The notes under the pieces were generated by a model. That model was not told where the DNA came from, did no database searches, and saw only the letters and a program-made list of their open reading frames with translations. The position numbers were made by a program, and so were the translations under genes. A DNA stretch of 64,000 nt, taken from positions 6,055 through 70,054 of the forward strand of contig JAFLVC010000010.1 in the NCBI GenBank assembly GCA_022508505.1, in the 5' to 3' direction. Of the stretch, positions 5,678 through 56,026 are shown piece by piece. This stretch comes from Clostridiales bacterium (GTDB lineage Bacteria > Bacillota > Clostridia > Christensenellales > Pumilibacteraceae). Numbering within the stretch: position 1 is the stretch's first letter; the number at the start of each line of letters is the position of its first letter.

Positions 5678-5913
5678 GAGTGGCGTTTAGTAATTTACAA
5701 CTATGCGCCATTCGTCAGGCGTAACGCAAAACGAATAGCGGCAGTTATACACGACATAAATCCAATCTGCGATCGGTTGCGAAAAAGCATAGGTGAGTGG
5801 CGTTAAGCAATTTACAACGACACAAAGCAAATCCGAGTGGCGTTAAGCAATTTACAACGACACGCTACTATTCGGGTGTAACAAACAACGAATCACTAAA
5901 GTAAACACACGAC
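5678..5913 (+). repeat. Intergenic repeat family, locus A: two ~117-bp units, the second with an internal 40-bp-period duplication
   Basis: GAGTGGCGTTAAGCAATTTACAACGACAC identical at 5795-5823 and 5835-5863, degenerate copy at 5678; boxes (A/G)GG(C/T)GTAAC and ACACGAC at 5749-5755 and 5907-5913. Confidence 0.85.
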
Positions 5914-5960
5914 GATAAAAAATCTTGCATACTTCTTTTTGAAGAAGTATTGGAAAATGG

Positions 5961-5989
5961 TTGCGTTAAGGGTTTTGTTGTGTTATAAT
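5961..5989 (+). promoter_or_regulatory. sigmaA promoter of the rpsB-tsf operon
   Basis: TTGCGT-N17-TATAAT with extended TG. Confidence 0.75.
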
Positions 5990-5996
5990 AAGGTCA

Positions 5997-6075
5997 ATAC
6001 TCACCCGAGTATTTTTCTGTGCGCGGTAAATTTTTTCATGCCGCGTGTCGCTCGGGGCGGTAAAACGGAGATACC
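5997..6075 (+). promoter_or_regulatory. Structured rpsB 5' leader (probable S2 autoregulatory element)
   Basis: CCCGAG...CTCGGG outer stem and GCGCGGTA...TGCCGCGT inner stem between promoter and SD; position matches known rpsB leaders. Confidence 0.55.
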
Positions 6076-6921
6076 ATGGCAAATATCATCACGATGAAAC
6101 AGCTTCTCGAAGCGGGCGTTCATTTCGGTCATCCCACGCGCAAGTGGAACCCGAAAATGAAAAAGTACATCTACGTATCGCGCAACGACATCTACATCAT
6201 CAACCTCGAAAAGACGGTTGAGATGATAGACAAGGCGTACACGTTCGTTAAGGACGTAGCGGCGCAGGGCAAGTCGATACTCTTTGTCGGCACCAAGAAG
6301 CAGGCTCAGGAAGCGATCATGCAGGAAGCGCAAAAGTGCGGCATGTACTATGTCAATTCGCGCTGGCTGGGCGGCACGCTGACAAACTTCCAAACGATCA
6401 AGACGAGGATCGAGCGTCTCAACAAGCTCAACCTCATGGAAAAAATGAACGAGTTCGCGCTCCTTCCCAAAAAGGAAGTGTTGAAGCTCAAGGCAGAGCG
6501 CGATAAGCTCGAAGAAAACCTCGGCGGCATCAAGGACATGCGCACGCTTCCCGGTGCGCTGTTCGTCGTCGACCCCAAGAAAGAGCACAACGCCGTAATG
6601 GAAGCGCATAAGCTCAATATTCCCATCGTCGCTATCGTCGACACCAACTGCGATCCCGACGAGATTGACTATGTCATTCCCGGCAACGACGACGCTATCC
6701 GTGCAATCAAACTTATTGCCGGCGCAATGGCTGACGCCGTTATCGAGGCGCGCGAGGGCGAGGAAGGTCTTGCGGCTCGCCGCGCTGTGGAAGCGCAGAT
6801 GAAGGCCGAGGCGGAAGCGACAAAGCCTCCCGTCGAAGTGGTTGAAGAACCCGCTACGCAAGAGCAGCTCGAAAAGCTCGCGGAAACCGCAGGCGCGGAA
6901 GAAGCCCCCGTCGAGGCGTAA
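6076..6921 (+). CDS. rpsB: 30S ribosomal protein S2
   Basis: [40 protein letters not shown]. Confidence 0.98.
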
Positions 6922-7044
6922 TGGCAAATCTATACACGGCAACACGGTTTTGCCGTGCGTAAAAAGTGCCTAAATCGGCACGGATAATCGAAAAATCACG
7001 ATAATCAAAAATAATAAATAAGCAGATATGCAAGGAGTAACAAA

Positions 7045-7980
7045 ATGGAAATTACGGCAAAGGACGTAGCAAAGCTAAGAGATATAACCGGCGTCGGCAT
7101 GATGGCGTGCAAAAAGGCACTCATCGCCACCGACGGCGACATTGATAAGGCGTGCGAATACCTGCGCGAGCAGGGCATGTCGATCGCCGCGAAAAAGGCG
7201 TCGAGAATCGCCGCAGAAGGCGCAGTAAAGGCGCACATTTCAAAGGACAAGCATACGGGCGCACTTGTAGAGGTCAACTGCGAATCGGACTTCGTCGCAA
7301 AGAGCGACGTGTTCGTAGACCTGTGCGACAAGATCGCGACCGCCGTTGTCGACAACAACGTCACGGACGTCGACGCATTGCAGTCCGTCAAGGTTGAGGG
7401 CGGCACGATCGCCGAGCTCATCACCAACGCGACGGCAAAGACGGGCGAAAAGATATCGCTCCGCCGCGCAGTCATACAGAGCGGAAAGGACGTCGTCGAA
7501 GAGGCGTACATTCACATGGGCGGCAAAATGGGCACGCTCGTCGAGATTAAGTGCGAGGGTCTCAAGGCGGAAGCGGTGGGCGACGTCGTCACCATGGCGC
7601 ACGACGTGGCAATGCACATCGCGGCGTTCCAGCCCACGTACGTAAGCAAGGCGGAGGTTCCGCAGGAAGCGCTTAACAAAGAGCGCGAGATAATAACCCA
7701 GCAGCTCAAAAACGATCCCAAGCTCGCGAACAAGCCGGAGATGGCGCTCGCAAAGATCACCGAAGGTAAGCTCGGCAAGTTCTACGAAGAGAACTGCTTG
7801 CTATATCAGGCGTTTGCAAAGGATCCGTCGATAACGGTCGAGCAGCTCGTAGCGCAGACCGCCAAGACCGTAGGAGCAAAGCTCGAGGTTTTGCGTTTCT
7901 CGAAGTTCGTCATGGGCGAAGGTATCGAAAAGCGCTCCGACAACCTTGCCGAAGAGGTCGCCAAGCTTTCCGGCAAATAA
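7045..7980 (+). CDS. tsf: Elongation factor Ts
   Basis: LRDITGVGMMACKKAL, KKASRIAAEG, EVNCESDFVAK, VAMHIAA. Confidence 0.97.
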   Translation: MEITAKDVAKLRDITGVGMMACKKALIATDGDIDKACEYLREQGMSIAAKKASRIAAEGAVKAHISKDKHTGALVEVNCESDFVAKSDVFVDLCDKIATAVVDNNVTDVDALQSVKVEGGTIAELITNATAKTGEKISLRRAVIQSGKDVVEEAYIHMGGKMGTLVEIKCEGLKAEAVGDVVTMAHDVAMHIAAFQPTYVSKAEVPQEALNKEREIITQQLKNDPKLANKPEMALAKITEGKLGKFYEENCLLYQAFAKDPSITVEQLVAQTAKTVGAKLEVLRFSKFVMGEGIEKRSDNLAEEVAKLSGK

Positions 7981-7988
7981 GTAATCGT

Positions 7989-8025
7989 AAGTCGGCTTGC
8001 CGCAGTTGCGACGAGCCGATTTTCT
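7989..8025 (+). terminator. Probable intrinsic terminator after tsf
   Basis: AGTCGGCTTG...CGAGCCGATT stem followed by TTTCT. Confidence 0.55.
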
Positions 8026-8058
8026 ATATAACAGGGCTTTTCCCGAAGTAGGAGCAGT

Positions 8059-8754
8059 ATGTATAAGAGAATTCTATTAAAGCTCAGCGGCGAGGCGCTC
8101 GCGGGTCCGAGCGGCACGGGCATCGATCCCGAAACGGTCGACATGGTCGTCTGTCAGCTCGTACAGCTCGCCAAAAGCGGCGTGGAAATCGCGATTGTAG
8201 TCGGCGGCGGCAACTTTTGGCGCGGCAGACAGGGCGTCGCTATGGACAAGGTGACGGCAGACCACATGGGCATGCTCGCGACGATAATGAACGCACTCGC
8301 ATTGCAGGACGCAATCGAAAAAAAGGGCGTGCCGACGAGAGTGCAGACGGCACTTTCCATTCCGGCGGTCGCAGAGCCGTTTATACTGAGAAAAGCTCTT
8401 CGGCACTTCGAAATGGGTCGGATTGTCATACTCGCTTGCGGAACGGGCAACCCTTACTTTACTACCGACTCGGGCGCAGCGCTGAGGGCTGCGGAGATTA
8501 AGGCGGACGTGCTTCTCATGGCGAAAAACGTCGACGGCGTTTACGACAGCGATCCCAAAACAAATAAGAACGCGAAAAAGCTTGACGAACTGACGTACAT
8601 GGACGTCATCAACAAAAACATCGCCGTCATGGACTTCACTTCAGTCACAATGTGCATGGAAAACAGGATACCTATTGTAGCTTTCGGACTCGCCGAGAAA
8701 AACAGCATAATCCGCGCTGTAAACGGCGAAAGAATAGGTACTATAATTCATTAA
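8059..8754 (+). CDS. pyrH: UMP kinase
   Basis: YKRILLKLSGEAL, VVGGGNFWRG, DHMGMLAT, GTGNPYFTTDSGAALRA. Confidence 0.98.
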   Translation: MYKRILLKLSGEALAGPSGTGIDPETVDMVVCQLVQLAKSGVEIAIVVGGGNFWRGRQGVAMDKVTADHMGMLATIMNALALQDAIEKKGVPTRVQTALSIPAVAEPFILRKALRHFEMGRIVILACGTGNPYFTTDSGAALRAAEIKADVLLMAKNVDGVYDSDPKTNKNAKKLDELTYMDVINKNIAVMDFTSVTMCMENRIPIVAFGLAEKNSIIRAVNGERIGTIIH

Positions 8755-8784
8755 ATTGACAAAAATCAATAAGGAGAAATATTT

Positions 8785-9348
8785 ATGCAGAACGAAACGC
8801 TCATAGAACAGTCGAGCAAAATCGACGGAAAGCTTGACAAGGTGATAGAACATCTCAAATCGGAGCTCAATTCCATGCGCGCAGGCCGCGCCAATCCGGT
8901 GGTGCTCAGCCGCGTAACGGTCGATTACTACGGAATGCAAACGCCGCTCAACCAAATGGCAAATATTTCGGTCGCAGATGCGCGCACGCTCGTTGTGTCG
9001 CTTTACGACGTGTCGGCGCTTCAGTCCGCCAAAAAGGCGATAATCGCCGCCGATCTCGGGCTCAACCCCGTTGACGACGGAAAGGTGATTCGTCTTGCGT
9101 TCCCGCAGCTTACGGAAGAGCGCCGCAGAGACCTCATAAAACAGGTCAAAAAGGTGGGCGAGGACAGCAAGGTCGCGCTCCGCAATGAGCGCCGCGACGC
9201 GCTCGACGCGGGAAAGCGCATCAAGAAAGACATTTCGGAAGACGAGTACGCCGAATACGAAAAGGTAATTCAGAAAAAGCTCGACGGCGCGATCGAGAAG
9301 GTCGACAAGCTCATCAAGGAAAAGGAAACTGACCTGCTTGAAATCTGA
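8785..9348 (+). CDS. frr: Ribosome recycling factor
   Basis: RAGRANP, VDYYG, LGLNPVDDG, PQLTEERR, RNERRDA. Confidence 0.97.
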   Translation: MQNETLIEQSSKIDGKLDKVIEHLKSELNSMRAGRANPVVLSRVTVDYYGMQTPLNQMANISVADARTLVVSLYDVSALQSAKKAIIAADLGLNPVDDGKVIRLAFPQLTEERRRDLIKQVKKVGEDSKVALRNERRDALDAGKRIKKDISEDEYAEYEKVIQKKLDGAIEKVDKLIKEKETDLLEI

Positions 9349-10021
9349 TAAAAGCAAGTGCCCCCGTCACGTCGGCATAATCATGGACGGCAACGGCAGG
9401 TGGGCTACCAAACGCCTTTTGCCGCGCACCGCGGGACACCGCGCCGGCGTTAAAAACATAACGTCGGTAGTCGAGGCCGCGCTCAATGCGGGAGTGCGGT
9501 GCGTAACGCTCTACGCGTTTTCCACCGAAAACAGAGGGCGTGAAAAGGACGAGATCGACGCGCTTATAGATCTTATCAGAAAGCATATCAAACCGATGAC
9601 GCGAGACTTGATTGCCCGCGGCGCATGCGTCGTGTTTTCGGGCGATTCGAGCTATTTTCCGAGCGACGTTCAGCAGCTCATGGCCGACATATCGGCGGAA
9701 AACAGCGGCTCGGAAACGTCGGTTAATATAGCGCTCAACTACGGCGGCAGAGAGGAAATAATCCGTGCCGCAAGGCTTGCAGCGGAAAGCGGCGAAATAA
9801 CAAAAGAGAGCTTTGAGCGCGAGCTTTACTCGTCAAAGCTTCCCGAGCTCGACATGATAGTGAGAACGGGCGGAGAAAAGCGGCTAAGCAATTTCCTGCT
9901 GTATCAGGCGGCGTATGCCGAGCTGTTCTTTACGGACACGCTGTGGCCCGATTTCGACGCAAAGGAATTGCTGTCGATGTTCGAAGAGTTCAATAAAAGA
10001 ACGAGAAAATTCGGAAAATGA
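9338..10021 (+). CDS. uppS: Undecaprenyl diphosphate synthase
   Basis: PRHVGIIMDGNGRWA, YAFSTEN, ALNYGGREEI, RTGGEKRLSNFLLYQAAYAE. Confidence 0.97.
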   Translation: MKSDKSKCPRHVGIIMDGNGRWATKRLLPRTAGHRAGVKNITSVVEAALNAGVRCVTLYAFSTENRGREKDEIDALIDLIRKHIKPMTRDLIARGACVVFSGDSSYFPSDVQQLMADISAENSGSETSVNIALNYGGREEIIRAARLAAESGEITKESFERELYSSKLPELDMIVRTGGEKRLSNFLLYQAAYAELFFTDTLWPDFDAKELLSMFEEFNKRTRKFGK

Positions 10022-10944
10022 ATAAAAAGCGTATAACCACAGGTATTTTTATAGGAATGACTTATGTCGGCGTGCTGTTGCTTGCCGTATACGTCCATCC
10101 GATATTTTTCGACGTGTTCGTGTTTTTGCTGTGCGCAGGCGGCGCGTGGGAAATGGCACGGGCTCTTTCCAACAAGTTCAGTCCCGCCATACTCATACTC
10201 GACATGATATCTGTAGTCGTGGGGTTTGGCGCGTTTTGGTTTGCGCAGTACTTTTTCAAGTCATATTCGGCTGGACTTTCGGGATACTTTGTATCGCTCG
10301 CAGTAATGATTCTCGTAACGGTGCTTGTGACGGCGTTTTCAAAAACGTACGTCAAGGGCAATGCGTTCACAACGATATTCGTAATGCTGTATCCCGTCGC
10401 GATACTGATGTTCTCTATGGGGCTAAACTACTTTATCGACCTCAATCTCGATTGGGTGGACGGCTCGAAGCCCATTCGAAACGCCGGGCTGTGTTTGATG
10501 TTTGTCGTTCCCGCGCTTACCGACACAATGGCATACGTCGTGGGCAGCATATTTAAGGGCAAAAAGCTCTGCCCGTCGATAAGCCCCAACAAGACCATTT
10601 CGGGCGCGTTCGGCGGACTGCTTGGCGGACTGCTCGGCGCCGGACTCGTGCTGCTCGTGACATTCCTTGCCGTAGAGTTCAACGTAAACCTTTTCGGACT
10701 CGCAATGCTGACCGACGGCGGGTGGACTGCGACAATAGTCAACCTGTTGATGCTCGGTCTGTTCGGCTCGGTGTTCGATCAAATCGGCGACCTTGTAGCG
10801 TCGTTTGTAAAGCGGCAGGTCGGGATAAAAGACTATTCAAATCTTTTGCCCGGACACGGCGGCGTTCTCGACCGCGTAGACGGGTTTATGCTGTGCGGCG
10901 TGTTCTTCTATATGTACTTCGCCGTCATGATGCTTGTAATATGA
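10018..10944 (+). CDS. cdsA: Phosphatidate cytidylyltransferase
   Basis: Multi-TM; DTMAYVVG, LCPSISPNKT, GDLVASFVKR..GIKDYSNLLPGHGGVLDRVD. Confidence 0.95.
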   Translation: MNKKRITTGIFIGMTYVGVLLLAVYVHPIFFDVFVFLLCAGGAWEMARALSNKFSPAILILDMISVVVGFGAFWFAQYFFKSYSAGLSGYFVSLAVMILVTVLVTAFSKTYVKGNAFTTIFVMLYPVAILMFSMGLNYFIDLNLDWVDGSKPIRNAGLCLMFVVPALTDTMAYVVGSIFKGKKLCPSISPNKTISGAFGGLLGGLLGAGLVLLVTFLAVEFNVNLFGLAMLTDGGWTATIVNLLMLGLFGSVFDQIGDLVASFVKRQVGIKDYSNLLPGHGGVLDRVDGFMLCGVFFYMYFAVMMLVI

Positions 10945-12050
10945 TTGAAATTTCGGTACTCGGTTGCACCGGCTCTATCGGATCGCAAACTCTCGATATA
11001 GCGCGTGCCAACAGGGATGCAATCAAGATAAACGCGCTTTCGTGCGGAAGTAACGTCGAGCTCTTGTGCAAACTTGCAAAAGAGTTCGATTGTCGTATTC
11101 TCGGCATAGCGAACGAGGACAAATATTCAGAGCTCAAAGCAAAAGCACCCAAGGGCGCACAAATATATTGCGGCGACGACGCGTTAGAGACGCTTGCGCG
11201 CTCCGCGCCGCTTGTCGTAAACGCCGTCGTCGGCATGATAGGGTTAAAGGCGGTGCTCGCCGCGCTTGACAACAAAGCGACTGTTGCGCTTGCCAACAAG
11301 GAATCGCTCGTTGCGGGCGGTGAGATAGTGAAAAGCGCACTTTCTCGCGGCGGCGAACTTCGCCCTGTTGACTCCGAGCACTCTGCTGTGTGGCAGGTGT
11401 CGCGCGGCGGCAAGAGCTTTAAGCGCATAATACTGACGGCGAGCGGCGGTCCGTTCTACTTCTATGACGGATCGCTCGAAAATGTAACGGTAGAGCAAGC
11501 GGTCGCACATCCCAATTGGAACATGGGGCAAAAGGTGTCCGTCGACTCGGCGACAATGATGAACAAAGCGCTCGAAATAATCGAAGCGCGTTGGCTGTTT
11601 GACACAACAGACATTGATTACGTCATACACCCCGAGAGCGTGGTGCATTCCATGGTCGAGTACGAGGACGGCTCTATAAAGGCTCAGGCGAGCTTTCCCG
11701 ACATGCGTCAGCCGATACAGTATGCGATTTTCGGCGAGCACGCGCCGCGGCAATACAAAGAACTGTCCCTGCCGCTCGATTTAAGGTTTTTACCGCCCGA
11801 CGAAAAACGGTTTCCCGCGCCGCTGCTTGCAAAGGAAGCAATCAAGGCGGGCGGCAATGCCGCAGTCATTTTGAACGCCGCAAACGAAGCGGCGGTGAGG
11901 CTGTTTCTCGAGCGCAAAATTGCGTTTACCGACATAGTAAAAACCGTGCAAAGCACAATGAAAAGCGAGCGCATAGAGCCGCTCTGCGGCGTAGAGAGCG
12001 TGTTTGCGACGCATAAACGCATTTACGATAAAATATACTCTTTAAAGTAA
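10941..12050 (+). CDS. dxr: 1-deoxy-D-xylulose 5-phosphate reductoisomerase
   Basis: Start at ATG 10941 overlapping the cdsA stop (ATGA); VLGCTGSIGSQTL, LANKESLV, PVDSEHSA, LTASGGPF, HPNWNMGQKVSVDSATMMNK. Confidence 0.97.
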   Translation: MIEISVLGCTGSIGSQTLDIARANRDAIKINALSCGSNVELLCKLAKEFDCRILGIANEDKYSELKAKAPKGAQIYCGDDALETLARSAPLVVNAVVGMIGLKAVLAALDNKATVALANKESLVAGGEIVKSALSRGGELRPVDSEHSAVWQVSRGGKSFKRIILTASGGPFYFYDGSLENVTVEQAVAHPNWNMGQKVSVDSATMMNKALEIIEARWLFDTTDIDYVIHPESVVHSMVEYEDGSIKAQASFPDMRQPIQYAIFGEHAPRQYKELSLPLDLRFLPPDEKRFPAPLLAKEAIKAGGNAAVILNAANEAAVRLFLERKIAFTDIVKTVQSTMKSERIEPLCGVESVFATHKRIYDKIYSLK

Positions 12051-12070
12051 GGACGGTTACAGAGGTCGCG

Positions 12071-13372
12071 TTGGAGTATTTTGCCTTTATAATTCTATCG
12101 ATCATGATACTCCTGCTCATGGTGCTAATCCATGAAGCGGGGCATTACACTACGGCAAAAATACTCGGCTTTACCATAGACGAATTTGCTATAGGCTTCG
12201 GACCGAAGCTCTTTTCTCGCCGCCGCAAAAACGGCGAGCTCTTTTCGCTTAGGGCGCTGCCGCTCGGCGGATTTTGCGCATTCTACGGCGAGGACGAGGA
12301 CGAGAACAAGCTTGATGATAATAAGTCCGAAGTAAGCGCCGACCAATCGCTTGACACTGTAGACAAAGAAAAAGATAAATCGGAAAGCGGCGAGAAAGCG
12401 TCCGACGACGACCTTTTGTCGTACGTCATGCAAAATGTCGAAAAAGAGCACGGAAGCGCCGATACGGAAAAGCGGGCGGAAACTGTTTCGCATTCCGGAA
12501 GTGTTGCTGCCGTCGCGACTGCGCCGACAAAGCCGCGACTCGGAAAGGACGGAAAGCCTGCGCTGCCGTTTAACGCTCAAAAACCGTGGAAGCGGCTGAT
12601 AGTTCTTATCGGCGGCGTGCTTTTCAATTTTTTGTCGGCGTTTATTTTTTCGCTCATTTATATAGGCGTCGTCGGGTTTCCCGTGCCCGAAATAACCGAG
12701 GTTTACACATACGTCAATCCCGAAACGCAGGCGGTAACTAAGTACAACGATTTCGAGGTTGGCGACAAGATAATCGCAATCAACGGCATTGAGATTACAG
12801 TCATGCGGTCTTACAACGACATTATCGAAGAAGTCGGCAACAAGGATACAATTAAGTTTAAGGTGCTTCGCGGCGGCAAAAAGGTTGACGTCGTCGCAGA
12901 ACGCAAGCAGATTACGCCGAGCGACGACAAGCAAAAACCGTATCTCGGGTTTGGGTACGTTCAAAAGTCGTGCTTTATCGGCAACAATGCGGGAAACGCC
13001 TTTACCTATTGCGTGCCGTACACCTTCAAACTGTCTTGGTCGATACTCGGTGCGTTCGGCGATATACTGACAGGGCGGCAGTCTATAACGAGCATGACGG
13101 GCCCCGTCGGCTCGATAAGCCTCATGGCGCAGGTGTCGGTCGCTGATTGGCGCAACATCTTGATTCTTCTTCCGCTCCTTGCGAGCAATCTCGCTATTTT
13201 CAATCTTTTGCCGTTTCCGGCGCTCGACGGCTCGCGCATGGTATTTACCGCAATAGAGTGGGTGCGAAAAAAGCCCATAAACCGAAAAGTCGAAGGCATG
13301 ATCCATTTTGTGGGCATGGTTGTACTGCTGTTGTTCGTTTTAGTGGTTGACATTTTATCTTTCGCGCTGTAA
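12071..13372 (+). CDS. rseP: RseP/RasP-type M50 intramembrane zinc protease with PDZ domain
   Basis: HEAGH, FAIGFGP, LPLGGF, NLLPFPALDGSR; position dxr-rseP-ispG. Confidence 0.95.
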   Translation: MEYFAFIILSIMILLLMVLIHEAGHYTTAKILGFTIDEFAIGFGPKLFSRRRKNGELFSLRALPLGGFCAFYGEDEDENKLDDNKSEVSADQSLDTVDKEKDKSESGEKASDDDLLSYVMQNVEKEHGSADTEKRAETVSHSGSVAAVATAPTKPRLGKDGKPALPFNAQKPWKRLIVLIGGVLFNFLSAFIFSLIYIGVVGFPVPEITEVYTYVNPETQAVTKYNDFEVGDKIIAINGIEITVMRSYNDIIEEVGNKDTIKFKVLRGGKKVDVVAERKQITPSDDKQKPYLGFGYVQKSCFIGNNAGNAFTYCVPYTFKLSWSILGAFGDILTGRQSITSMTGPVGSISLMAQVSVADWRNILILLPLLASNLAIFNLLPFPALDGSRMVFTAIEWVRKKPINRKVEGMIHFVGMVVLLLFVLVVDILSFAL

Positions 13373-13375
13373 AAT
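13347..13375 (+). promoter_or_regulatory. sigmaA promoter inside the rseP 3' end, 6 nt before the ispG GTG (leaderless)
   Basis: TTGACA(13347-52)-N17-TAAAAT(13370-75); no SD before GTG 13382. Confidence 0.65.
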
Positions 13376-13381
13376 ATACGC

Positions 13382-16503: not shown

Positions 16504-16580
16504 AAATAGTAGTTAAAATTTATAACGACACAAGAGTATTAGGGTGTAACAAACTGTGAATAACGGTAGAAGCACACGAC
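16504..16580 (+). repeat. Intergenic repeat family, locus B (single copy)
   Basis: AATTTATAACGACAC-N10-GGGTGTAAC(16542-50)-N23-ACACGAC(16574-80), collinear with loci A and C. Confidence 0.8.
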
Positions 16581-16631
16581 AAAAACCCGATCTGTGATTG
16601 GTTCTTTTTTAAAAGAAGTAAGAGAAAACGC

Positions 16632-16660
16632 TTGCAATTTATATAATAGGGTGTTATAAT
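16632..16660 (+). promoter_or_regulatory. sigmaA promoter of the rimP-nusA-infB operon
   Basis: TTGCAA-N17-TATAAT with extended TG. Confidence 0.75.
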
Positions 16661-31785: not shown

Positions 31786-31821
31786 ATGTCGGCGGGATTT
31801 ACAGTTCCGCCGATTTTCTTT
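31786..31821 (+). terminator. Intrinsic terminator after spoIIIAH
   Basis: TCGGCGGGA...TTCCGCCGA stem then TTTTCTTT. Confidence 0.7.
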
Positions 31822-31875
31822 GCGGTTTTTCGTTTGCCGAATAAAAAACGGCGGTAAATATACGACATTAAAGGG

Positions 31876-31904
31876 TTGTAATTTTCTTTGTAATGTGGTA
31901 TAAT
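31876..31904 (+). promoter_or_regulatory. sigmaA promoter of the asp23-nusB-folD operon
   Basis: TTGTAA-N17-TATAAT with extended TG; preceded by a partial copy of the repeat family (31849-31866). Confidence 0.7.
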
Positions 31905-45996: not shown

Positions 45997-46002
45997 ACGA
46001 GT

Positions 46003-46836: not shown

Positions 46837-46870
46837 GTTTTGATGTAATTAATGGTGGGCGAAAACGGAC

Positions 46871-47062: not shown

Positions 47063-47182
47063 TTATATACCCTCCTGAACGATAACACTGTTATTTCTGT
47101 ACCAATATACCACTTTTGAGCCGTTTTAGCAACCGAAAAAGGGTACTTTTTGGTAAAAATTCAAAAAATTTATTCAAATCTC

Positions 47183-47211
47183 TTGCAAAATTATACCGAA
47201 TAGGTTAAAAT
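47183..47211 (+). promoter_or_regulatory. sigmaA promoter of asp23-fakA-recG
   Basis: TTGCAA-N17-TAAAAT. Confidence 0.6.
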
Positions 47212-47250
47212 ACAGGTATCGGATACATATAATTTGTTTTGAAGTGAGAC

Positions 47251-47607: not shown

Positions 47608-47626
47608 GGCATTTTCGGAGGAAGAA

Positions 47627-49276: not shown

Positions 49277-49314
49277 TTTTTACCGCCTAAACATGGCGCA
49301 ACGCAATAGAAAAA

Positions 49315-51288
49315 TTGGAACTTTGCGAGATTAAGGGAATCGGCGCCAAGCGCGTCCAATCATTGAACGAGTCCGGAATATACACTCCGTCCGATTTGCT
49401 GTTGCGTTTTCCCGATAAATACATATATAAAGACACCAAAATAGACAGAAACGTGCGCGAGGGGCAGGAAATTTCGTTCGTCGGCACGGTAGTAAGCGAG
49501 GCCTCTCGACGGTTTATACGTCGGGGGCTTACTGTTGTGAGCTGCTGTTTGGAAAATAACGGCATAAAGATCAAGTGCAGTTGGTTCAATCAGCCGTACG
49601 CCGCGCGAAACCTCAAGCTCGGTGATAGGGTATACGCGTGCGGAAAGGTCAAAAAATTCGGAAGTTCGTTGCAGCTTACAAACCCGACCTTTATGACGCC
49701 GCAAGATGGCGACGGTGATATTGTGCCCGTTTACAGGACTACGATTCCGTCGCGGGCGTTTGCTTCTGCGGTGAGGACTGCGCTCGACAATGTAAGAGTT
49801 AACAGCTTTATTCCAAATAATTTAGGCGACAAGTACGGCATCATGCCGCTCGGCGAGGCGCTAAAGACAGTTCACTGCCCATCCGATGTGCAGGCGCTTA
49901 AAAGGGCGAGGCGTTCGGTAGCAGTCGAGAATATGAGCTATGTCGTCACGTCGTACCGATTGCTTAAGGACGACGCGCGCGACTTTTCGTACCGCGCAAA
50001 AAGTGAGTGCATAGACGATTACGTCAACAGTCTGTCGTACCCGCTGACGCCCGACCAAAAGAACGCCGTCGACGCGATAATATCTTCAATGAAGTCGGAC
50101 AAATTGATGAACATGCTCGTTCAAGGCGAGGTGGGCTGCGGAAAGACGGCGGTCGCAATGTGCGCCATGTATTTTGCCGCACGAAGCGGGTATCAGTCGG
50201 CAATCATGACGCCTACCGAAGTGCTTGCGCGGCAGCATTACGATACGATGGTAAAGGTGTTGGAGCCGCTTGGAATAAAAACGCAGTTGCTTTGCGCGTC
50301 TATGAATAAGGTTCAGCGCGAAACGGCGCTTTTCAATATAAGATACGGTGCGGCGAGCTGCATTGTCGGAACGCAGTCGCTTATCGGCGACGACATCGAA
50401 TACGACGATCTCAGGCTCGTAATAGTCGACGAACAACAGCGCTTCGGAGTCAACCAGCGCGCAAAGTTGGAGAGCAAGGGCAAAAAAACGGACATGATAG
50501 TCATGACTGCAACGCCCATTCCGCGCACACTCGCGCTTTCGCTTTACGGCGAACTTCAGCAGACTGAAATTCGCACTATGCCGAGTAACCGTCCCGTCAT
50601 TCATACGGCAACCGTGCCTCCGCAAAAGATTGATGGAATGTATAAATACATAAAGGAACGCGCTGCGCTCGACGAGCGTACGTATATAATTTGCCCGCGC
50701 ATAGAGGGAGCGGACGACGACATAACGGGTGTGGAAGAGATTTACGGCAAGCTCAAAAAATCGCCGCTCGCCGATATTACAGGCTGCGTTCACGGCAAGA
50801 TGAAGGACGCCGAGCGCAACGAGATTATGGCGGCGTTTAAACGCGGCAAGATAAAGGTTTTGGTGTCGACGACGGTGGTCGAGGTGGGAATTGACGTTCC
50901 CGAAGCGACTACGGTCGTAATTTACGATGCGGAAAGATTCGGGCTGTCGCAGCTTCATCAGATACGCGGAAGAGTTGGGCGCGGTACAAAGGAATCGTAC
51001 TGCTTTTTGATAAGCGAGAACGGCACGCCGGAGAGCGACGCTCGGCTCAAGCAGTTTTGCGGCATGACGGACGGGTTTTCTGTTTCCGAGCTCGATTTCA
51101 AGCTTCGCGGCGCGGGAGATTTTGTGGGATTGCGTCAGCACGGAAACGGCTCGCTCGAAATAGACGAGGATATAATCGAGCGGTCGCGGGCGCTTTCGGA
51201 CGCTGTTATTGCCGACGGAAGCTCGTGCGCCGCGATCATTCGGTCGCTGAAAGCGCCGGAGTTTATTCGTTCGGTGACGATGAACTGA
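49315..51288 (+). CDS. recG: ATP-dependent DNA helicase RecG
   Basis: IKGIGAKR, QGEVGCGKT, PTEVLARQH, VDEQQRFGV, MTATPIPRTL, ERFGLSQLHQIRGRVGRG, RGAGDF. Confidence 0.96.
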   Translation: MELCEIKGIGAKRVQSLNESGIYTPSDLLLRFPDKYIYKDTKIDRNVREGQEISFVGTVVSEASRRFIRRGLTVVSCCLENNGIKIKCSWFNQPYAARNLKLGDRVYACGKVKKFGSSLQLTNPTFMTPQDGDGDIVPVYRTTIPSRAFASAVRTALDNVRVNSFIPNNLGDKYGIMPLGEALKTVHCPSDVQALKRARRSVAVENMSYVVTSYRLLKDDARDFSYRAKSECIDDYVNSLSYPLTPDQKNAVDAIISSMKSDKLMNMLVQGEVGCGKTAVAMCAMYFAARSGYQSAIMTPTEVLARQHYDTMVKVLEPLGIKTQLLCASMNKVQRETALFNIRYGAASCIVGTQSLIGDDIEYDDLRLVIVDEQQRFGVNQRAKLESKGKKTDMIVMTATPIPRTLALSLYGELQQTEIRTMPSNRPVIHTATVPPQKIDGMYKYIKERAALDERTYIICPRIEGADDDITGVEEIYGKLKKSPLADITGCVHGKMKDAERNEIMAAFKRGKIKVLVSTTVVEVGIDVPEATTVVIYDAERFGLSQLHQIRGRVGRGTKESYCFLISENGTPESDARLKQFCGMTDGFSVSELDFKLRGAGDFVGLRQHGNGSLEIDEDIIERSRALSDAVIADGSSCAAIIRSLKAPEFIRSVTMN

Positions 51289-51289
51289 A

Positions 51290-52933
51290 ATGCGCGCGGT
51301 CAACTTTAGGGCGTTTTTAATAATTTCCGCTTTCGTGACCGGCGCCGTATTGTGCTCGTATTTGTATATGTGCTTTAAAACGGCAGGCATAGTCGTCGGC
51401 GCTGTGTATCTTACGGCGCTCGCGGCGCTTGCCGTTGTTTTTATTATAAGATTTGTAAAAAGCAAGGCAAAATTGAGGATGGCGGTGACGTTCGGGCTTT
51501 CGCTCGTCCTCTCTCTTCTTGCGTTTTGCTTTGGCGCGGCTTACGTCAATTCACGCGCCGAAAGCATGAAAAACGGTGGTTATCACTACGTAGTGGGCAG
51601 AGTTTGCGCTGTAGATATAAGAAACGGAAGATACAGAATAGATCTAGAGGACCTCGTGTTCGACGGAAAGGAGCATGACGGCATTTTGCGAATAACCGTA
51701 AGAGCGAGCGACAACAACGTCGCCGAGACGGTACAGTGCGGCGACGGATTGTCGTTTAATGCAAAGGTGTCGTGCAAACAGCTCGTTTCGGACGGTAAGG
51801 TAGACGGCACGTCGTACCGAACCGATATAATATACACCGCTACGGTAAGCTCTGACGAAATCAAGGTAATATTCGGTGAGCCGTCGCCGATAGAAAGCTT
51901 TTTGTCGGGACTGCGCGAGCTTTTGACAAAGAACATGGGCGATAAGTACGGAAATATTGCGTTTTCCATGCTGACAGGCGACAAGCACGCACTCGGATAC
52001 GACGTAACCGATTATTATTCTGCTGCGGGGCTTGGGCATATAATGGCGGTGTCGGGATTGCATATCGGCTTTTTGGTCGTATTGTTAAACATCATCTTGG
52101 CGCGTGTGGGAAGAAAGACGCGTTTTGGAATCATTGCCGCTTTTCTTGTCGTGTACGTAGTGATTGCCGACTTTTCGCCGTCTGTGGTGCGCGCGGCAAT
52201 CATGTGCGTTATTGCGATGTTTTCTGTATTCGTGGGCGGAAGGCGGGACATACTGTCGGCGGTGCTGTGTGCGTATTCATTTATATTGGCGTTTAAGCCG
52301 CTGTATCTGTTTGAAGTCGGGTTTGTGCTAAGCTTCGGCGCGATTTTCGGCATTGCGCTGTTCGCGCGTACGTTCGCTCGCGGAATGGAAAATCACGGAA
52401 TCCACCGCAAGATAGGGAATGCGGTCGGCGCGTCCGCTTCCGTTCAAATCGGCATTGTGCCGGCCGAAACATACTTTTTCGGGAAGATTCAGACGCTTGC
52501 ACTCATAGTAAACGTCATACTCATTCCGTATATTGCGGTCGTGTTCGTTTCAATCGTCATATTTTCGATAATCGGCGCGATTCCAGGCATCGGCGCAGTG
52601 CTCGTCGTGCCGAAATATCTGCTCGTTCCGATCGACTATATTGCGCAGGGAATCGCAGCCGTCCCGTATTCGACGTTTTACGTCAATACAACAGCCGCCG
52701 CGTTTTTATGCTATCCCGTCATGTTCGTCGCGAGCGAATACTTTATGATGAATAGGGGCAAACTCGCGGTGATTTTGGCTTCAATCGCGGTCTGTTTTGC
52801 GTTTTTGTGCATAAATACGGGAAAACCTTCCGCCAAGTACTATGCAGAAACAGGTAAGACTATAGTCGCAGCTGCTTATGATGTCGAAATTTTGCCAAAC
52901 AATCCGCTTAAAAATATCAGATTAGAGATGTAG
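51290..52933 (+). CDS. comEC: ComEC/Rec2-family competence protein (OB + competence domains, no C-terminal beta-lactamase-like domain)
   Basis: AGLGHIMAVSGLHIG, SPSVVRAAIM, GFVLSF; protein ends about 40 aa after the last TM helix. Confidence 0.85.
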   Translation: MRAVNFRAFLIISAFVTGAVLCSYLYMCFKTAGIVVGAVYLTALAALAVVFIIRFVKSKAKLRMAVTFGLSLVLSLLAFCFGAAYVNSRAESMKNGGYHYVVGRVCAVDIRNGRYRIDLEDLVFDGKEHDGILRITVRASDNNVAETVQCGDGLSFNAKVSCKQLVSDGKVDGTSYRTDIIYTATVSSDEIKVIFGEPSPIESFLSGLRELLTKNMGDKYGNIAFSMLTGDKHALGYDVTDYYSAAGLGHIMAVSGLHIGFLVVLLNIILARVGRKTRFGIIAAFLVVYVVIADFSPSVVRAAIMCVIAMFSVFVGGRRDILSAVLCAYSFILAFKPLYLFEVGFVLSFGAIFGIALFARTFARGMENHGIHRKIGNAVGASASVQIGIVPAETYFFGKIQTLALIVNVILIPYIAVVFVSIVIFSIIGAIPGIGAVLVVPKYLLVPIDYIAQGIAAVPYSTFYVNTTAAAFLCYPVMFVASEYFMMNRGKLAVILASIAVCFAFLCINTGKPSAKYYAETGKTIVAAAYDVEILPNNPLKNIRLEM

Positions 52934-52969
52934 AAAACGCGGCACGGCGATATGTAAACGGCATTATCG

Positions 52970-53563
52970 TTATGCCGTTTTGATGGGAAGATACAGCCTC
53001 GGCAGCATTATTCGGTAATCGTCGTTTCTCGCAAGCACTATCACGTTTCCGTTTTCGAAAACCATAATTTTTCCGTTTTCGAGCACTTCGCCGTACAGGC
53101 AGTCGGAAACGTAAACATTGTGCGCCGTACTGTCGAGCGGCTCGTCGTAGTACAAAGTCAAGCCGCCGCCCGAGTGAAGATACCAATTGCCGTAGTGCAC
53201 GGCTTTAACGCCGTCGGTTACTACCGTCATGTCGTAGGTGTTGTCGTCGCGCAGGGTGAGCGAGTAGCTCAAAGTGTCGTCTTTTTGCTTGTCGCGGTCG
53301 GAATGAACGTATTCCGCCGAATATTCTCCGGCAAGGCTTCTCATTCTGCGCCTAACGCCGAAAATGGGGCGAGATTGCCCAAGCCTCACTTCTTTTTCGG
53401 GCTCGACCTCTATCGCGCCGCTGTTTTTATCGGTTTCGGTCACCTCTGTTTTGGCGCGCGTAGTTATTGTGTTTGTGGAGGCATGGGGCTTGGGAACGCC
53501 GCAACCGACAAGGGCGGACGATACGGCGGAAATCGCAAGAATAGCCGACAGAGTTTTTTTCAT
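52970..53563 (-). CDS. Hypothetical lipoprotein (lipocalin-like beta-rich domain)
   Basis: GAGG SD; signal peptide with lipobox LVG-C; YSLTLRDDNTYDM...YGNWYL pattern. Confidence 0.7.
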   Translation of the reverse strand: MKKTLSAILAISAVSSALVGCGVPKPHASTNTITTRAKTEVTETDKNSGAIEVEPEKEVRLGQSRPIFGVRRRMRSLAGEYSAEYVHSDRDKQKDDTLSYSLTLRDDNTYDMTVVTDGVKAVHYGNWYLHSGGGLTLYYDEPLDSTAHNVYVSDCLYGEVLENGKIMVFENGNVIVLARNDDYRIMLPRLYLPIKTA

Positions 53564-53589
53564 AGTTCACCTCGCGTTATCTTTTTGTT

Positions 53590-53619
53590 TAGTGTCTTTT
53601 TCGCGTCATGTTTTTATAC
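53590..53619 (-). promoter_or_regulatory. sigmaF/sigmaG-like promoter for the lipoprotein gene
   Basis: GTATA-N18-GACACTA on the minus strand. Confidence 0.4.
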
Positions 53620-53696
53620 CTAATTTGTTTTTAAAAAACTTTTGCGTATTCGATAAAAACGGTTGACAAAGACGTGCGGTGAGGTATATAATGACA

Positions 53697-53795
53697 ATGC
53701 AAGCAGATTTATCTCACCGTTCGGGCTTGCTCGGAACGGTTAATCGAATAAATTTTTCGATGCGAGTATATTTGTTTGCGCTCGCATTTTTTATT
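53697..53795 (+). promoter_or_regulatory. L20 leader (ribosomal-protein autoregulatory attenuator) of infC-rpmI-rplT
   Basis: Follows TTGACA-N18-TATAAT; starts AAGCAGA..TCTCACC; terminator ATGCGAGT...GCTCGCAT-TTTTT at 53760-53792. Confidence 0.75.
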
Positions 53796-53812
53796 TTCGG
53801 GAGGAAATAACC

Positions 53813-54325
53813 ATTTTTAAAGAGCTTGTTACAAACGACGGGATTGCCGACAATCTCGAAGTGAGAGTTAAGGACGAAACGGGCGCAATGCTCGGCATCA
53901 TGCGCGCTCAAGAGGCTAAATCTATAGCCGACGAACGCAGACTCGATCTCGTATTGATAACGCCCAACGCTCAGCCGCCGGTCTGCCAAATCATGGACTA
54001 CGGCAAGTTCCGTTTCGACGCGACGAAAAAGGCCAAGGACGCGGCCAAAAATCAGAAAAAGACCGACCTTAAAGAAATACGACTTTCTATCACGATAGAC
54101 AAGGGCGATCTTGCGACAAAGGCCAAGCAAGCTACTAAATTCCTTACCGACGGCGACAAGGTAAAAGTTACCATCCGCATGCGCGGCAGACAGCAGGCGC
54201 GGCCGCAGATGGGCGTCGACGTAATGAACACGTTTTACGAGGCCGTTAAGGACGTGGCGGTAATAGACCGTAAGCCCTCGGTCGACGGCAGGAGTATCTT
54301 TATGATTCTCGTGCCCAACAAATAA
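53813..54325 (+). CDS. infC: Translation initiation factor IF-3, ATT start codon
   Basis: GGAGG at 53800-04, in-frame ATT 8 nt later; LDLVLI.PNAQPPVCQIMDYGKF, KEIRLS, DKVKVTIRMRGR. Confidence 0.96.
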   Translation: MFKELVTNDGIADNLEVRVKDETGAMLGIMRAQEAKSIADERRLDLVLITPNAQPPVCQIMDYGKFRFDATKKAKDAAKNQKKTDLKEIRLSITIDKGDLATKAKQATKFLTDGDKVKVTIRMRGRQQARPQMGVDVMNTFYEAVKDVAVIDRKPSVDGRSIFMILVPNK

Positions 54326-54356
54326 TAAGCAATAAATTTTCCGGAGGAATACAAAT

Positions 54357-54554
54357 ATGCCCAAAATGAAGAGCCACAGCGGCGCGAAAAAGCGCTTTCG
54401 CGTAACCGCAAACGGCAGAGTAAAAAGAGCGCAGCAAGGCAAAAACCACATTCTCAACAAGAAACCGAGAAAGCGCATCATGAGATTGCGTCAGGGTGCT
54501 TACCTTAAATCGGCTAAGCAAGAGAAGACTATTCGCAACATGGCGCAGAAGTAA
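54357..54554 (+). CDS. rpmI: 50S ribosomal protein L35
   Basis: [17 protein letters not shown]. Confidence 0.98.
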
Positions 54555-54565
54555 GGAGGCAGATC

Positions 54566-54922
54566 ATGAGAATAAAAAGAGCAGTCAACGCAGTAAAAAA
54601 GCGTAGAAAGATTTTTAAGCTGTCCAAGGGCTATTTCGGCTCTAAGTCTCGTTCGTACCGCATTGCTCGTCAAGCGGTTATGAAGTCGCAGATGTATGCA
54701 TACATCGGCCGTCGCCTGAAGAAGCGCGATTTCCGTTCGCTTTGGATTGCGCGTATCAACGCCGCCGCGCGTTTGAACGGTCTTTCGTACTCAAAGCTCA
54801 TGCACGGGCTCAAAGTAGCCGGCATCGACCTCAACCGCAAGGTGCTTGCGGACATTGCGGTAAACGACGCGGAAGCGTTTAAGGCTCTCGCCGAAAAGGC
54901 GTCCGCCGCCATCGCGAAATAA
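54566..54922 (+). CDS. rplT: 50S ribosomal protein L20
   Basis: [38 protein letters not shown]. Confidence 0.98.
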
Positions 54923-54927
54923 AATAT

Positions 54928-54960
54928 AAGCGGAGCGTCATAAAAAGCGCTCCGTTTTAT
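54928..54960 (+). terminator. Intrinsic terminator after rplT
   Basis: AAGCGGAGCG...CGCTCCGTTT plus TAT. Confidence 0.8.
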
Positions 54961-54993
54961 ATTATGCCGCAAGTAGAAGCGGGAAGAGTCAAT

Positions 54994-55728
54994 ATGGAAG
55001 TAATAACGTCGATATCAAACGCAATCGTAAAGCGAATCAATAAGCTGAAGCAAAAAAAATACCGCGACGAAGCGGGCGAGTTTATAGTCGAGGGACTCAG
55101 AAACGTTCGCGACACCGCGGAAGCTACTCCGCAATCGGTTGTCGCCGTAATTCTCGGTGAGAGCTCGTATAAAAAGTACGGCGCCGAGTTTTCGGCGTTT
55201 TCGGTGTCGGTGGTTTCGGACGCAATCGTCGAAAAGCTGTCGGACGCCGAGAGCAGTCAGGGCGTCATTTCGATAAACAGGAAAAAGCAGTCCGAGTTTC
55301 CGTCGGGAAGATGCGTGCTTCTCGACAGAGTGCGCGATCCTGGGAACGTAGGGACGATTTTGCGCACGGCGGTTGCTGCGGGGTATGACGTCGTGCTCGA
55401 CGGCTGCTGCGATATTTATTCGCCCAAGGTGGTTAGAAGCGGCATGTCGGCTGTGTTGAAGTGCCGCATAAGTGAGGATATTTCCGTTGCCGAACTTAAA
55501 GCGGCGGGCTACGAGATTATAGTTGCCGACATGAACGGCGAGGATATTTTCGACGCGGCAAAGCCGATCGGCAAGTACTGCATAGTGATAGGCAACGAGG
55601 CGGACGGCGTGAGCGACGAGATAGCAAACGCCGCCGACCGCATTATCGCCATTCCGCAGTCAGGCGTCGAGTCATTAAACGCCGCCGTCGCCGCAGGCGT
55701 GATGATGTTCGTGCTCGGCAGGAAGTAA
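54994..55728 (+). CDS. TrmH/SpoU-family RNA 2'-O-methyltransferase
   Basis: ITSISNAIVK, FIVEG, DPGNVGTILRTA, IGNEADGVS, ESLNAAVAAG. Confidence 0.93.
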   Translation: MEVITSISNAIVKRINKLKQKKYRDEAGEFIVEGLRNVRDTAEATPQSVVAVILGESSYKKYGAEFSAFSVSVVSDAIVEKLSDAESSQGVISINRKKQSEFPSGRCVLLDRVRDPGNVGTILRTAVAAGYDVVLDGCCDIYSPKVVRSGMSAVLKCRISEDISVAELKAAGYEIIVADMNGEDIFDAAKPIGKYCIVIGNEADGVSDEIANAADRIIAIPQSGVESLNAAVAAGVMMFVLGRK

Positions 55729-56026
55729 AACCGTATGCCGACAGCGGTTGCAGGCGTGGCGTCGACTAATTTCTAACGACACGAAATTCCTCGGCGTAAT
55801 AATGTTCGTGCTCGGCAGTAAGTAAAGCCGTATACCGACAGCGGTTGCAGTCGTGGCGTCGACAAATTTCTAACGACACGAAATTCCTCGGGTGTATTAA
55901 TGTTCGTGCTCGGCATGAAGTAAAACCGTATACCGACAGCGATTGCAGTCGTAGCGTTGACAAATTTCTAACATCACGAAATTTCTCGGGTGTAACCTCA
56001 AATACTTACGGCAGCAAACACACGAC
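55704..56026 (+). repeat. Intergenic repeat family, locus C: three tandem 97-98 bp units, the first overlapping the methyltransferase 3' end
   Basis: Units start at 55704, 55801, 55899 with ATGTTCGTGCTCGGCA..AAGTAAA.CCGTATRCCGACAGCGRTTGCAG.CGTRGCGTYGAC.AATTTCTAAC..CACGAAATT.CTCGG; last unit continues GGGTGTAAC-N23-ACACGAC. Confidence 0.9.

Follow-up and report, generated by a model that had tools for sequence, protein, structure and literature searches.

Copies of an intergenic repeat in the window

The 64,000-nt stretch of DNA analysed here (the window) contains one intergenic repeat at four places: locus A (5646–5923), locus B (16517–16611), locus C (55696–56027) and, as a 3′ fragment, 31839–31867. 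The first-pass annotation had named the same four, and the shared frame of boxes that it proposed is present at loci A, B and C, with spacing fixed to ±1 nt. The repeat consists of a core (M) and optional modules (L, R and P), described below. Locus A follows a DUF1292 gene (stop codon TAG, 5628–5630), and a decayed R-like hairpin, CAAGC-TGT-GCTCG (5646–5659, + strand), which we read from the sequence and which resembles the R consensus CCAAGCTGTGCTTGG, lies 16 nt past that stop. On the same strand, a first copy of L (5677–5715; nhmmer L model, E=8e-8) runs into a variant M, TCAGGCGTAAC…ATACACGAC (5710–5756; nhmmer M model, E=7e-10), and then an R hairpin with one mismatch, CCAATC-TGC-GATCGG (5762–5776), which is terminator-like on the minus strand. 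A solo L with no M after it (5795–5826, E=8.5e-8) precedes a third L (5832–5869, E=8.5e-10; both + strand, L model) and the second M with its A-rich tail …ACACACGACGATAAAAAA (5868–5923, + strand; M model, E=2.3e-11). Between this element and the rpsB promoter a regex scan found the P palindrome CTTGCATACTTCTTTTTGAAGAAGTAT (5925–5951, + strand); the promoter, also on the + strand and read from the sequence, has its -35 (TTGCGT) at 5961–5966 and its -10 (TATAAT) at 5984–5989, and is conserved in congeners.

The remaining sites are likewise on the + strand. Locus B, immediately downstream of an AT-rich ORF, begins with the 3′ half of L, AATTTATAACGACACA (16517–16532), a weak nhmmer match (E=1.4) in the family register, and continues with an M core (16535–16582; M model, E=3e-6 over 16542–16582), the R hairpin CCGATC-TGT-GATTGG followed by TTCTTTTTT (16587–16611), half a P palindrome and a promoter at 16632–16660. 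The upstream gene had been said to lack a classical terminator, but the hairpin and T-run of the element itself (16587–16611) form a terminator-like site in the sense orientation. The fragment at 31839–31867 is a decayed 3′ half of M, …CGGCGGTAAATATACGACA (nhmmer E=0.035), with a strong terminator before it (31788–31814) and, 9 nt after it, the -35 of a promoter at 31876–31904. At locus C a repeat search found three tandem 97–98-nt units (55696–55987) of 86–100% identity, each comprising 33 nt of the end of the upstream methyltransferase-like CDS (stop codon TAA, 55726–55728), an R-like remnant …CGGTTGCAG, L, and the first ~12 nt of M. The three copies counted there earlier are indeed three L modules (nhmmer matches at 55752–55791, 55853–55888 and 55950–55983), arising as a tandem triplication, but only one M is complete (55982–56027, nhmmer E=3e-12); 11 nt separate the end of its CGAC from the -35 of a promoter at 56038–56066 (TTGACA-17-TACAAT).

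A modular family throughout the genome

Genome-wide there are about 110 copies (110–113) of the 50-nt core at 80 loci in the 1.89-Mb MAG, a number far above chance expectation. The 110 copies of M divide into 68 on the + strand and 42 on the − strand, so the earlier statement that all copies are on the + strand holds within the window, where every gene is on +. By our gene calls, which like our terminator calls came from crude custom scripts, 107 of the 110 (97%) lie outside genes. M has the form TCGGGTGTAAC…ACACACGAC, with a variable, A/C-rich centre, and its most conserved columns are the two terminal boxes, separated by 18 or 19 nt in every one of 56 pattern-matched copies. The ends, TCG(G/T)GTGT, form a pair of inverted repeats 8–11 bp long, such as MITEs have at their termini: TCGGGTGT matches the reverse complement of ACACACGA at 7 of 8 positions, and a longer alignment matches at up to 10 of 11. 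L (52 copies, ~40 nt, GTGGCGT…AACGACAC) stands at an invariant distance from M, with no indel across 36 copies, and contains the imperfect inverted repeat GTGGCGTT/AACGACAC noticed at first pass, in which 72% of cells pair. R is an A-rich linker plus a 15-nt hairpin with a 5–6-bp stem and a UGU loop, and P a ~30-nt palindrome. The modules combine as L-M, M-R, (M-R)n, (L-M)n and L-M-P, and form tandem arrays with periods of 63, 84–86, 95–106 and 97 nt, whose copies run head-to-tail without inverted pairs. One array is present at two contig ends (C4 and C16), and because arrays lie at contig ends the family explains breaks in the assembly.

Covariation is confined to one module. The R stem shows compensatory changes (GC, CG, UA and AU at one position; score 0.53 versus 0.19 shuffled), while the stem of L shows no covariation and RNAalifold gives no consensus RNA structure for M. 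Folding z-scores of single elements range from -0.1 to -2.0. Read off the consensus, A-tracts lie ~31 nt apart in M and its tail.

Polarity relative to neighbouring genes

The element is co-oriented with its neighbouring genes at 46 loci and opposed at 10 (p=6e-7). The bias is equally strong where a terminator is predicted upstream (16:2) and elsewhere (30:8), which a purely neutral model of harmless orientation does not predict; that it persists behind terminators suggests a connection to the downstream promoter. The 3′ end of the element, a hairpin or A-tract, abuts a -35, a start codon or, if inverted, a stop codon. At 25 loci or more, the distance from CGAC to the -35 is 9–11 nt without R, 18–22 nt with R and 41–51 nt with P, and distances of 10–11 and 40–42 nt recur in five other species. 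About eight copies end instead at a start codon, with the ATG 10–11 nt past CGAC and a GG that can serve as a Shine-Dalgarno sequence. At 8 of the 10 inverted loci the antisense copy places a hairpin and T-run, resembling a weak terminator, 7–26 nt past the stop codon. The rule that copies always lie between a stop codon and the next promoter is thus too strict, since besides those at start codons some are internal to operons and ~20 are found where genes converge or in opposite orientation. A terminator is predicted before the co-oriented copy after 44% of upstream genes, against a 49% baseline. The genes 3′ of copies are functionally unrelated (dnaA, parB, purC, hisS, spoIIID and others), and the association with translation and transcription operons proposed from the window is true of the window only.

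Distribution and turnover

Within one uncultured genus of gut Christensenellales, 17 of the 31 genomes carry the family and the other 14 have no copy, so that the range over the genus is 0 to 113 copies per genome. It is absent from all 88 genomes examined from 18 sister genera of the same family, no copy was found in 12 other families of the order, and viral and metagenome contigs gave no true match; true pattern matches came solely from MAGs named 'uncultured Christensenella sp.' or 'Clostridiales bacterium HAN09x'. The subfamily consensus differs species by species. Comparing filled and empty orthologous loci, as had been proposed, gave a mixed picture upstream of rpsB, where the site is occupied in the focal MAG (G000), G007 and G041, and holds a decayed copy in G005 and G006; in G031 and G008 it is empty or retains a remnant. 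The rpsB promoter and leader are kept whether or not the element is there. Copies are therefore gained, lost and decaying at orthologous sites on a species-level timescale.

Search for known families and mobilising enzymes

Rfam gave no match at gathering score across the window, and nothing relevant at E<=1–5 for locus A and three element-rich loci of relatives, in keeping with the first impression that this is not a named element. A literature search for intergenic repeats in Christensenellaceae found no described family. The RAYT/Y1 domain (PF01797) is absent from the focal MAG and from high-copy genomes G001, G005, G006, G011 and G012, and present in only five, three without copies (G013, G015, G016) and two with three copies each (G003, G004). 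We found no multi-copy protein or transposase in the MAG assembly and no long element bounded by M boxes. MAG assemblies often drop IS copies, so the missing mobilising enzyme is weak evidence. No consistent flanking target-site duplication or clean empty site was seen in comparisons made above strain level between MAGs that may lack IS copies.

Interpretation

We consider the family to be probably a genus-specific, non-autonomous mosaic interspersed repeat of the BOX/BIME kind; as such a family it is new, and the element is 'junk-like'. Among the candidates first put forward, the non-autonomous mobile unit fits best, given the modular build, the arrays, the confinement to one genus, the range from 0 to more than 100 copies and the turnover at sites. 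Copies multiply locally, through slippage at micro-homologies or unequal recombination between them, as is shown by the 63-nt M-R arrays and by the locus C triplication, which took 33 nt of CDS along. Dispersal to new sites would need a trans-acting activity, and the terminal inverted repeats of M would suit a transposase, in a MITE-like manner. Copies would survive at sites and in orientations that are harmless or useful, and those retained may serve as A-tract DNA upstream of promoters, as a terminator, or as a 5′ UTR that brings a Shine-Dalgarno sequence. Compaction of the small genome may have removed spacer DNA beside them. The promoter-flush polarity is the family's one unusual trait.

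A rival reading is a promoter-upstream DNA module, be it a portable UP-like or bent-DNA element or a site for an activator or nucleoid protein. M, together with L or P, would then work as DNA just upstream of sigma-A promoters, and its orientation and helical phase to the -35 would matter. We regard this as unlikely. At the 25 or more loci the steps from CGAC to the -35 are roughly whole helical turns, although the phasing is based on just 2–3 independent module lengths and there are misfits at 24, 33, 36 and 44–48 nt. The same -35 distances recur in the five other species and at locus C and the 31839–31867 fragment, the L-M-P-(-35) layout is common across the genus, sequence boxes rather than pairing are conserved, and the spaced A-tracts and the 16:2 bias at terminator-shielded sites agree with such a module. 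However, a promoter is missing from the 3′ end at about half of the loci (start codons, a pur operon, convergent ends, arrays), species whose rpsB site is empty still conserve the promoter, 14 of the 31 genomes do without any copy, and the downstream genes have no common function. The last point, and the retention of the rpsB promoter and leader without the element, also tell against the proposed growth-related operator, and we rejected a transcription-factor operator or regulon on these grounds; nor is the element a control site for ribosome genes.

It is also unlikely, in our judgement, that the element acts as a transcribed RNA in UTRs and intercistronic spacers, with R and the A/C-rich M as a putative stabiliser, processing site, protein sponge or leader. 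Co-orientation with transcription (46:10) would be expected of it, ~8 copies make up the entire 5′ UTR to the ATG with an SD-like GG, and others lie within an apparent pur operon (PurC confirmed, the other genes read from their N-termini); BOX, ERIC and Correia elements act when co-transcribed (PMC3049150). The compensatory changes in R agree as well, but in a short palindrome DNA-level processes can produce them too. No consensus structure emerges for M and no covariation for L, the z-scores reach only -2.0 and Rfam has no match. The 44% of genes with a terminator before the co-oriented copy, the same as the 49% baseline, weigh against this reading and, like the lack of structure in M and of covariation in L and the modest z-scores, against the structured 3′-UTR RNA first suggested.

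A further reading, to which we give a similarly small chance, is that the family is a polar, self-propagating 'signal cassette' whose 3′ end is placed or retained at the -35 edge or start codon, acting as a helically phased upstream element and, when reversed, as a terminator. If true, the family would supply regulatory signals from a mobile source that targets promoter edges; we know of no description of such targeting for bacterial small repeats. Very improbable is a site for site-specific recombination (attC-like or dif-like) bounding inserted genes, for instance the AT-rich ORF that precedes locus B, since apart from that ORF and the terminal inverted repeats of M nothing favours it, no association with an integrase was noticed in passing, and copies beside ordinary core genes (dnaA, parB, hisS, purC), tandem arrays without an intervening gene and the lack of matches in the viral contigs searched fit it poorly.

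The mosaic repeat that we favour adds a well-defined family to the Christensenellales, gut bacteria that are known largely through MAGs. It carries an annotation risk, as the repeat could pass for spurious 'conserved motifs' upstream of ribosomal operons, and its variable arrays could be markers for strain typing. With its marked polarity the family lends itself to studying if small repeats are tolerated, are targeted or become domesticated as regulatory DNA.

Comparison with known repeat families

MITEs such as RUP and Correia/NEMIS elements resemble our family in being short and non-autonomous, in their restriction to a lineage and in having terminal inverted repeats, and can give neighbours promoter or terminator signals (PMC3184786, PMC10969869). 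M differs in being only 50 bp, and in that tandem duplication makes much of the copy number; neither a target-site duplication nor a parent IS or matching transposase was found. REP/BIME and REPINs (PMC2817692, PMC3116915) share the high extragenic copy number, a short palindrome with compensatory changes, the mosaic layout and a species-specific consensus. We rejected RAYT-mobilised REP/BIME because RAYT is absent where the repeat is abundant and M has no palindromic structure; instead of a core palindrome there is the optional 15-nt R hairpin of only 5–6 bp, and copies run head-to-tail rather than in inverted pairs. Pneumococcal SPRITE has a hairpin and T-rich tract near CDS 3′ ends and is a possible terminator (PMC3049150), which antisense R and tail resemble at 8 of the 10 inverted loci, as does locus B, but here the stem is a weak 6 bp and one face of a larger polar element.

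The architecture is also close to that of BOX from S. pneumoniae (boxA-boxB(n)-boxC), which is small, non-coding, intergenic and modular, with boxB varying in tandem arrays, ~100 copies in a ~2-Mb Firmicute genome, nesting with other repeats, no transposase of its own and orientation-dependent effects on the expression of genes beside it (PMC3049150). Our family likewise has variable modules, a tandem internal module, intergenic position, high copy number and lineage restriction. The likeness is one of architecture, and sequence homology to boxA, boxB or boxC is unlikely because our family is restricted to one genus. The A and C ends of BOX pair in a long stem, whereas M and L have no supported structure, and the present family is strongly co-oriented with genes, its 3′ end flush with a -35, an ATG or a stop codon.

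Copy number and modular organisation

The intergenic elements of the window belong to a real, new and genus-restricted mosaic interspersed repeat, built around a 50-nt core, M. Copies of this core in the source MAG (1.89 Mb in 25 contigs, ~53% G+C; the window is C2:6055-70054) were located with two models, an nhmmer profile refined by iteration and a covariance model of sequence alone (R1); the consensus of M is ACTCGTCGGGTGTAAC-N21-ACACACGACAAA. The sequences reported in the first-pass annotation at 5678-5913, 16504-16580, 55704-56026 and 31849-31866 are present as described, and a repeat search of the window recovers a 48-nt frame shared by loci A (5646-5923), B (16517-16611) and C (55696-56027). 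Its proposal of a dispersed family holds genome-wide, with 110–113 copies of M, but its statement that all copies lie on the + strand does not extend beyond the window, as 68 are found on the + strand and 42 on the − strand. The fixed spacing of the boxes is true to within ±1 nt, the spacer between box 1 and box 2 being 18 or 19 nt in 56/56 pattern-matched copies. By gene boundaries that we called only roughly ourselves, 107 of the 110 copies lie between genes. The copies fall into 80 loci: 55 hold one copy, 21 hold two and 3 hold three, while 1, at a contig end, holds four.

The two ends of M, TCGGGTGT and ACACACGA, are mutual inverted repeats and comprise its most conserved columns. Three optional modules accompany the core. 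L (52 copies, consensus GAGTGGCGTCGAGCAATTTCTAACGACACGAAACTCGT) lies at a constant distance upstream, while R follows M in ~50 copies as an A-rich linker and then a hairpin, with the variants CAGGC-TGT-GCCTG, CCAAGC/GCTTGG, CCAATC/GATTGG, CCAACC/GGTTGG and CCAAAC/GTTTGG. P is a ~30-nt A/T-rich palindrome, CTTGCCTACTTCTTTT-N-AAAAGAAGTAGG (also written CTTGCCTACTTCTTTT-N-AAAAGAAGTAGGCAAG), with ~10–12 copies immediately 5′ of a −35 box, for instance at 5925-5951 and 16611-16622 of the window and at C5:20817, C7:15208, C16:6049 and C3:2750, among others, on the contigs of the source MAG. The arrangements found are L-M, M-R, (M-R)n with a period of 63 nt, (L-M)n with periods of 84–106 nt and L-M-P; in five other species the commonest form is L-M-P followed by the −35 box. 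At locus C a repeat search reveals a tandem triplication with a unit of 97–98 nt, which begins within the upstream coding sequence and is joined at a micro-homology (GGCGTGAT/GGGTGTAA), and is thus a local duplication rather than a transposition.

Several further repeat features were seen. A near-identical 63-nt M-R array terminates two contigs (C4:1-145 and C16:6044-6287), which probably adjoin each other in the genome; the array itself is then longer than the assembly shows. The same A/T palindrome, AAAATTTAATGAAATTTTAATG, which includes the mini-ORF ATG AAA TTT TAA, follows two M copies (C5:23183-23215 and C20:28864-28895) and may be one more module. At least two further abundant families often adjoin M. 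Repeat X, an imperfect palindrome (GTCATTCTGAGCGGAGCG…GGAGTCGAAGAATCT; e.g. C1:85631-85800, C12:63592-63760 and C25:83689-84000), is intergenic, with ~80–160 arm matches genome-wide and none in the window; many of its occurrences directly adjoin an M or R module. Repeat Y (CCCCTCAGTC…GACAGCTCCCCTTATTAAGGGGAGCC; e.g. C5:22800-23000, C22:105750-105930 and, on the minus strand, C7:14080-14250) has ~50–68 copies and sometimes stands 5′ of an extended L variant (…CTCTATCACCGTCATTCACGACAGAATGGCGTTTA…).

Distribution and turnover

R1 matches 17 of the 31 genomes of the genus, with 113 copies in the source MAG, at least 48 in a second genome (G042), and 34, 28, 24, 22, 21 and progressively fewer in the others, the lowest count being 1; copies of one species have a subfamily signature in common. 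Outside the genus the model matched nothing, either in the 88 genomes examined from 18 further genera of the family or in 12 other families of the order; cultured Christensenella species are without the element. A scan of 185,579 species genomes with the exact pattern gave multiple or HMM-confirmed matches only in “uncultured Christensenella sp.”, “Clostridiales bacterium HAN096/097/099” and one “uncultured Clostridia” MAG; the remainder were singletons in unrelated phyla, in about the number that we estimate by chance. No viral contig matched the pattern, and 22 metagenome matches are attributable to chance, as their scores with the M profile are poor and BLAST aligns none of them to the source MAG.

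Comparison of one orthologous site, the DUF1292–rpsB spacer, in 22 congeners, a check of the kind suggested in the first-pass annotation, shows the site filled, decayed or empty. In the source MAG, L, M and R modules take up ~270 nt of the spacer; the spacers of G007 and G041 hold one L-M each, those of G005 and G006 decayed copies, and those of G001 and G012 P alone; in G031 and G008 the promoter is near-identical to that of G007 and G041 with the element absent or a remnant, and the other congeners have no element. Throughout, the rpsB promoter (TTGCGT-17-TATAAT) and leader are kept. The element has thus been gained and lost, and it is dispensable for rpsB expression.

Two further features of this site were noted. 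In G007 and G041 (sequences L044 and L082) another local repeat, of short TTCGGAATT units, fills the gap between the DUF1292 stop codon and L-M. The ~85-nt rpsB leader (5990-6075; AATACTCACCCGAG…GCTCGGGGCGGTAAAACGGAGA) has no Rfam match and is highly conserved in the 22 congeners. It appears to pair over a long range (CTCACCCGAG/CTCGGGG) and is a candidate S2 autoregulatory leader. A metagenome search with this leader for strain-level relatives with empty or filled sites gave no match.

Position relative to genes and promoters

Of the loci flanked by genes that run in one direction, 46 share the orientation of the genes (co-oriented) and 10 oppose it (anti-oriented; p=6e-7). In the co-oriented state the 3′ end of the element may abut a good −35 box; measured from the CGAC of M, the distance is 9–11 nt at ~9 loci without R, 18–22 nt at ~8 loci with R, and 41–51 nt where P is present. 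In the window, locus C (11 nt) and a decayed 3′ fragment of M at 31839-31867 (9 nt) follow this rule, as do copies in G001, G005, G007, G011 and G012. The −35 box itself is not part of the repeat, as the spacers and −10 regions of the abutting promoters are unrelated and TTGACA is absent after copies at convergent gene ends. At ~8 other loci the tail GGTTAAAAAA continues directly into an ATG, with an SD-like GG in 6 of the 8. Eight of the ten anti-oriented loci sit 7–26 nt past the stop codon of the gene running into the element, where the reverse strand reads as a hairpin and T-run.

One explanation of this polarity is that the element has a function in DNA upstream of promoters. The co-oriented excess persists where a predicted strong terminator separates the upstream stop codon from the element (16:2, against 30:8 elsewhere), and for this reason we retain the reading as a minority one, though an improbable one. 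Strong polarity behind terminators is the one feature that lies outside the textbook picture. Convergent and divergent loci (11 leading, 7 lagging) include only 4 discordant cases, too few to judge a polarity set by the replication strand.

The first-pass annotation had considered a growth-related operator. An operator for translation genes does not survive inspection of ten downstream proteins from a random draw of 20, which are of mixed function: ParB, a PP2C phosphatase, SpoIIID, Der, an FprA-like protein, PurC, HisS, V-ATPase subunit A, a CysK-like PLP enzyme and DnaA. P lies directly upstream of the −35 box of ~12 promoters and is conserved in several congeners (at rpsB in G001 and G012 among them); it may act as the operator of a dimeric regulator. 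The genes behind these promoters include rimP, a ppdK-like gene and, from our reading of N-terminal sequences, rpsB, dnaX, nth, tig (trigger factor), a tRNA, an ABC transporter and a LytTR regulator. Separately, one to three co-oriented L-M copies per spacer precede three successive genes of an apparent purine-biosynthesis cluster at C20:130650-137100 (purC confirmed, purM-like and purL-like by our reading of the N-termini), and two of these copies continue directly into the start codon.

RNA structure and terminators

Structured RNA is not supported for M, as RNAalifold finds zero pairs in 94 copies. Folds of single whole elements give z-scores of −0.1 to −2.0, with only the L and R hairpins appearing. 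The check for covariation proposed in the first-pass annotation favours the R stem only: both sides change in 5 of 6 pairs, and the score of 0.53 (0.19 for shuffled alignments) is reached by 0/500 shuffles. The sequences scored had been chosen because they pair, which qualifies this score; the occurrence of all four Watson-Crick types at one position of the stem is nonetheless real. L is not a hairpin by this measure, since 72% of cells pair but 416 of 500 shuffles equal that; its inverted repeat is a consensus feature and not a selected stem.

A role for M as a Rho/rut-like or other substitute for terminators is likewise rejected. Intrinsic terminators are predicted before 44% of co-oriented copies and at 49% of other genes, so the element does not replace them, and the upstream transcript ends before it reaches many of the copies. 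At locus B, a sense-orientation R followed by a T-run scores as terminator-like. In an RNA-seq search, no more than three runs contained ~5% of the query words.

Mechanism and relation to known repeats

The best-supported mechanism has four parts. Copies grow in tandem by slippage or unequal recombination, a step that can be seen in the arrays; they would disperse rarely, presumably through a trans-acting function; they survive in those positions and orientations in which the 3′ end abuts, as observed, and perhaps serves gene signals; and they turn over on a species-level time scale, as seen among congeners.

In agreement with the first-pass annotation, which recognised no named element, Rfam searches by gathering score and E-value gave no match, and to our knowledge none of the Spo0A, cre, CodY and LexA boxes fits M. 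A REP/RAYT system does not fit, given the absence of PF01797 (Y1 transposase) from the source MAG and every high-copy congener, and no autonomous parent or IS was found, the assembly having no long box 1…box 2 units and no multi-copy proteins. M has terminal inverted repeats, as MITEs do, but membership in that class is only partial, as a target duplication, parent element and multi-copy transposase were not found in this assembly, which is a MAG. The closest match in kind is the pneumococcal BOX, which is built of several modules, the internal one varying in its number of tandem units, has ~100 copies, occurs nested with other repeats and has orientation-dependent effects on adjoining genes (PMC3049150).
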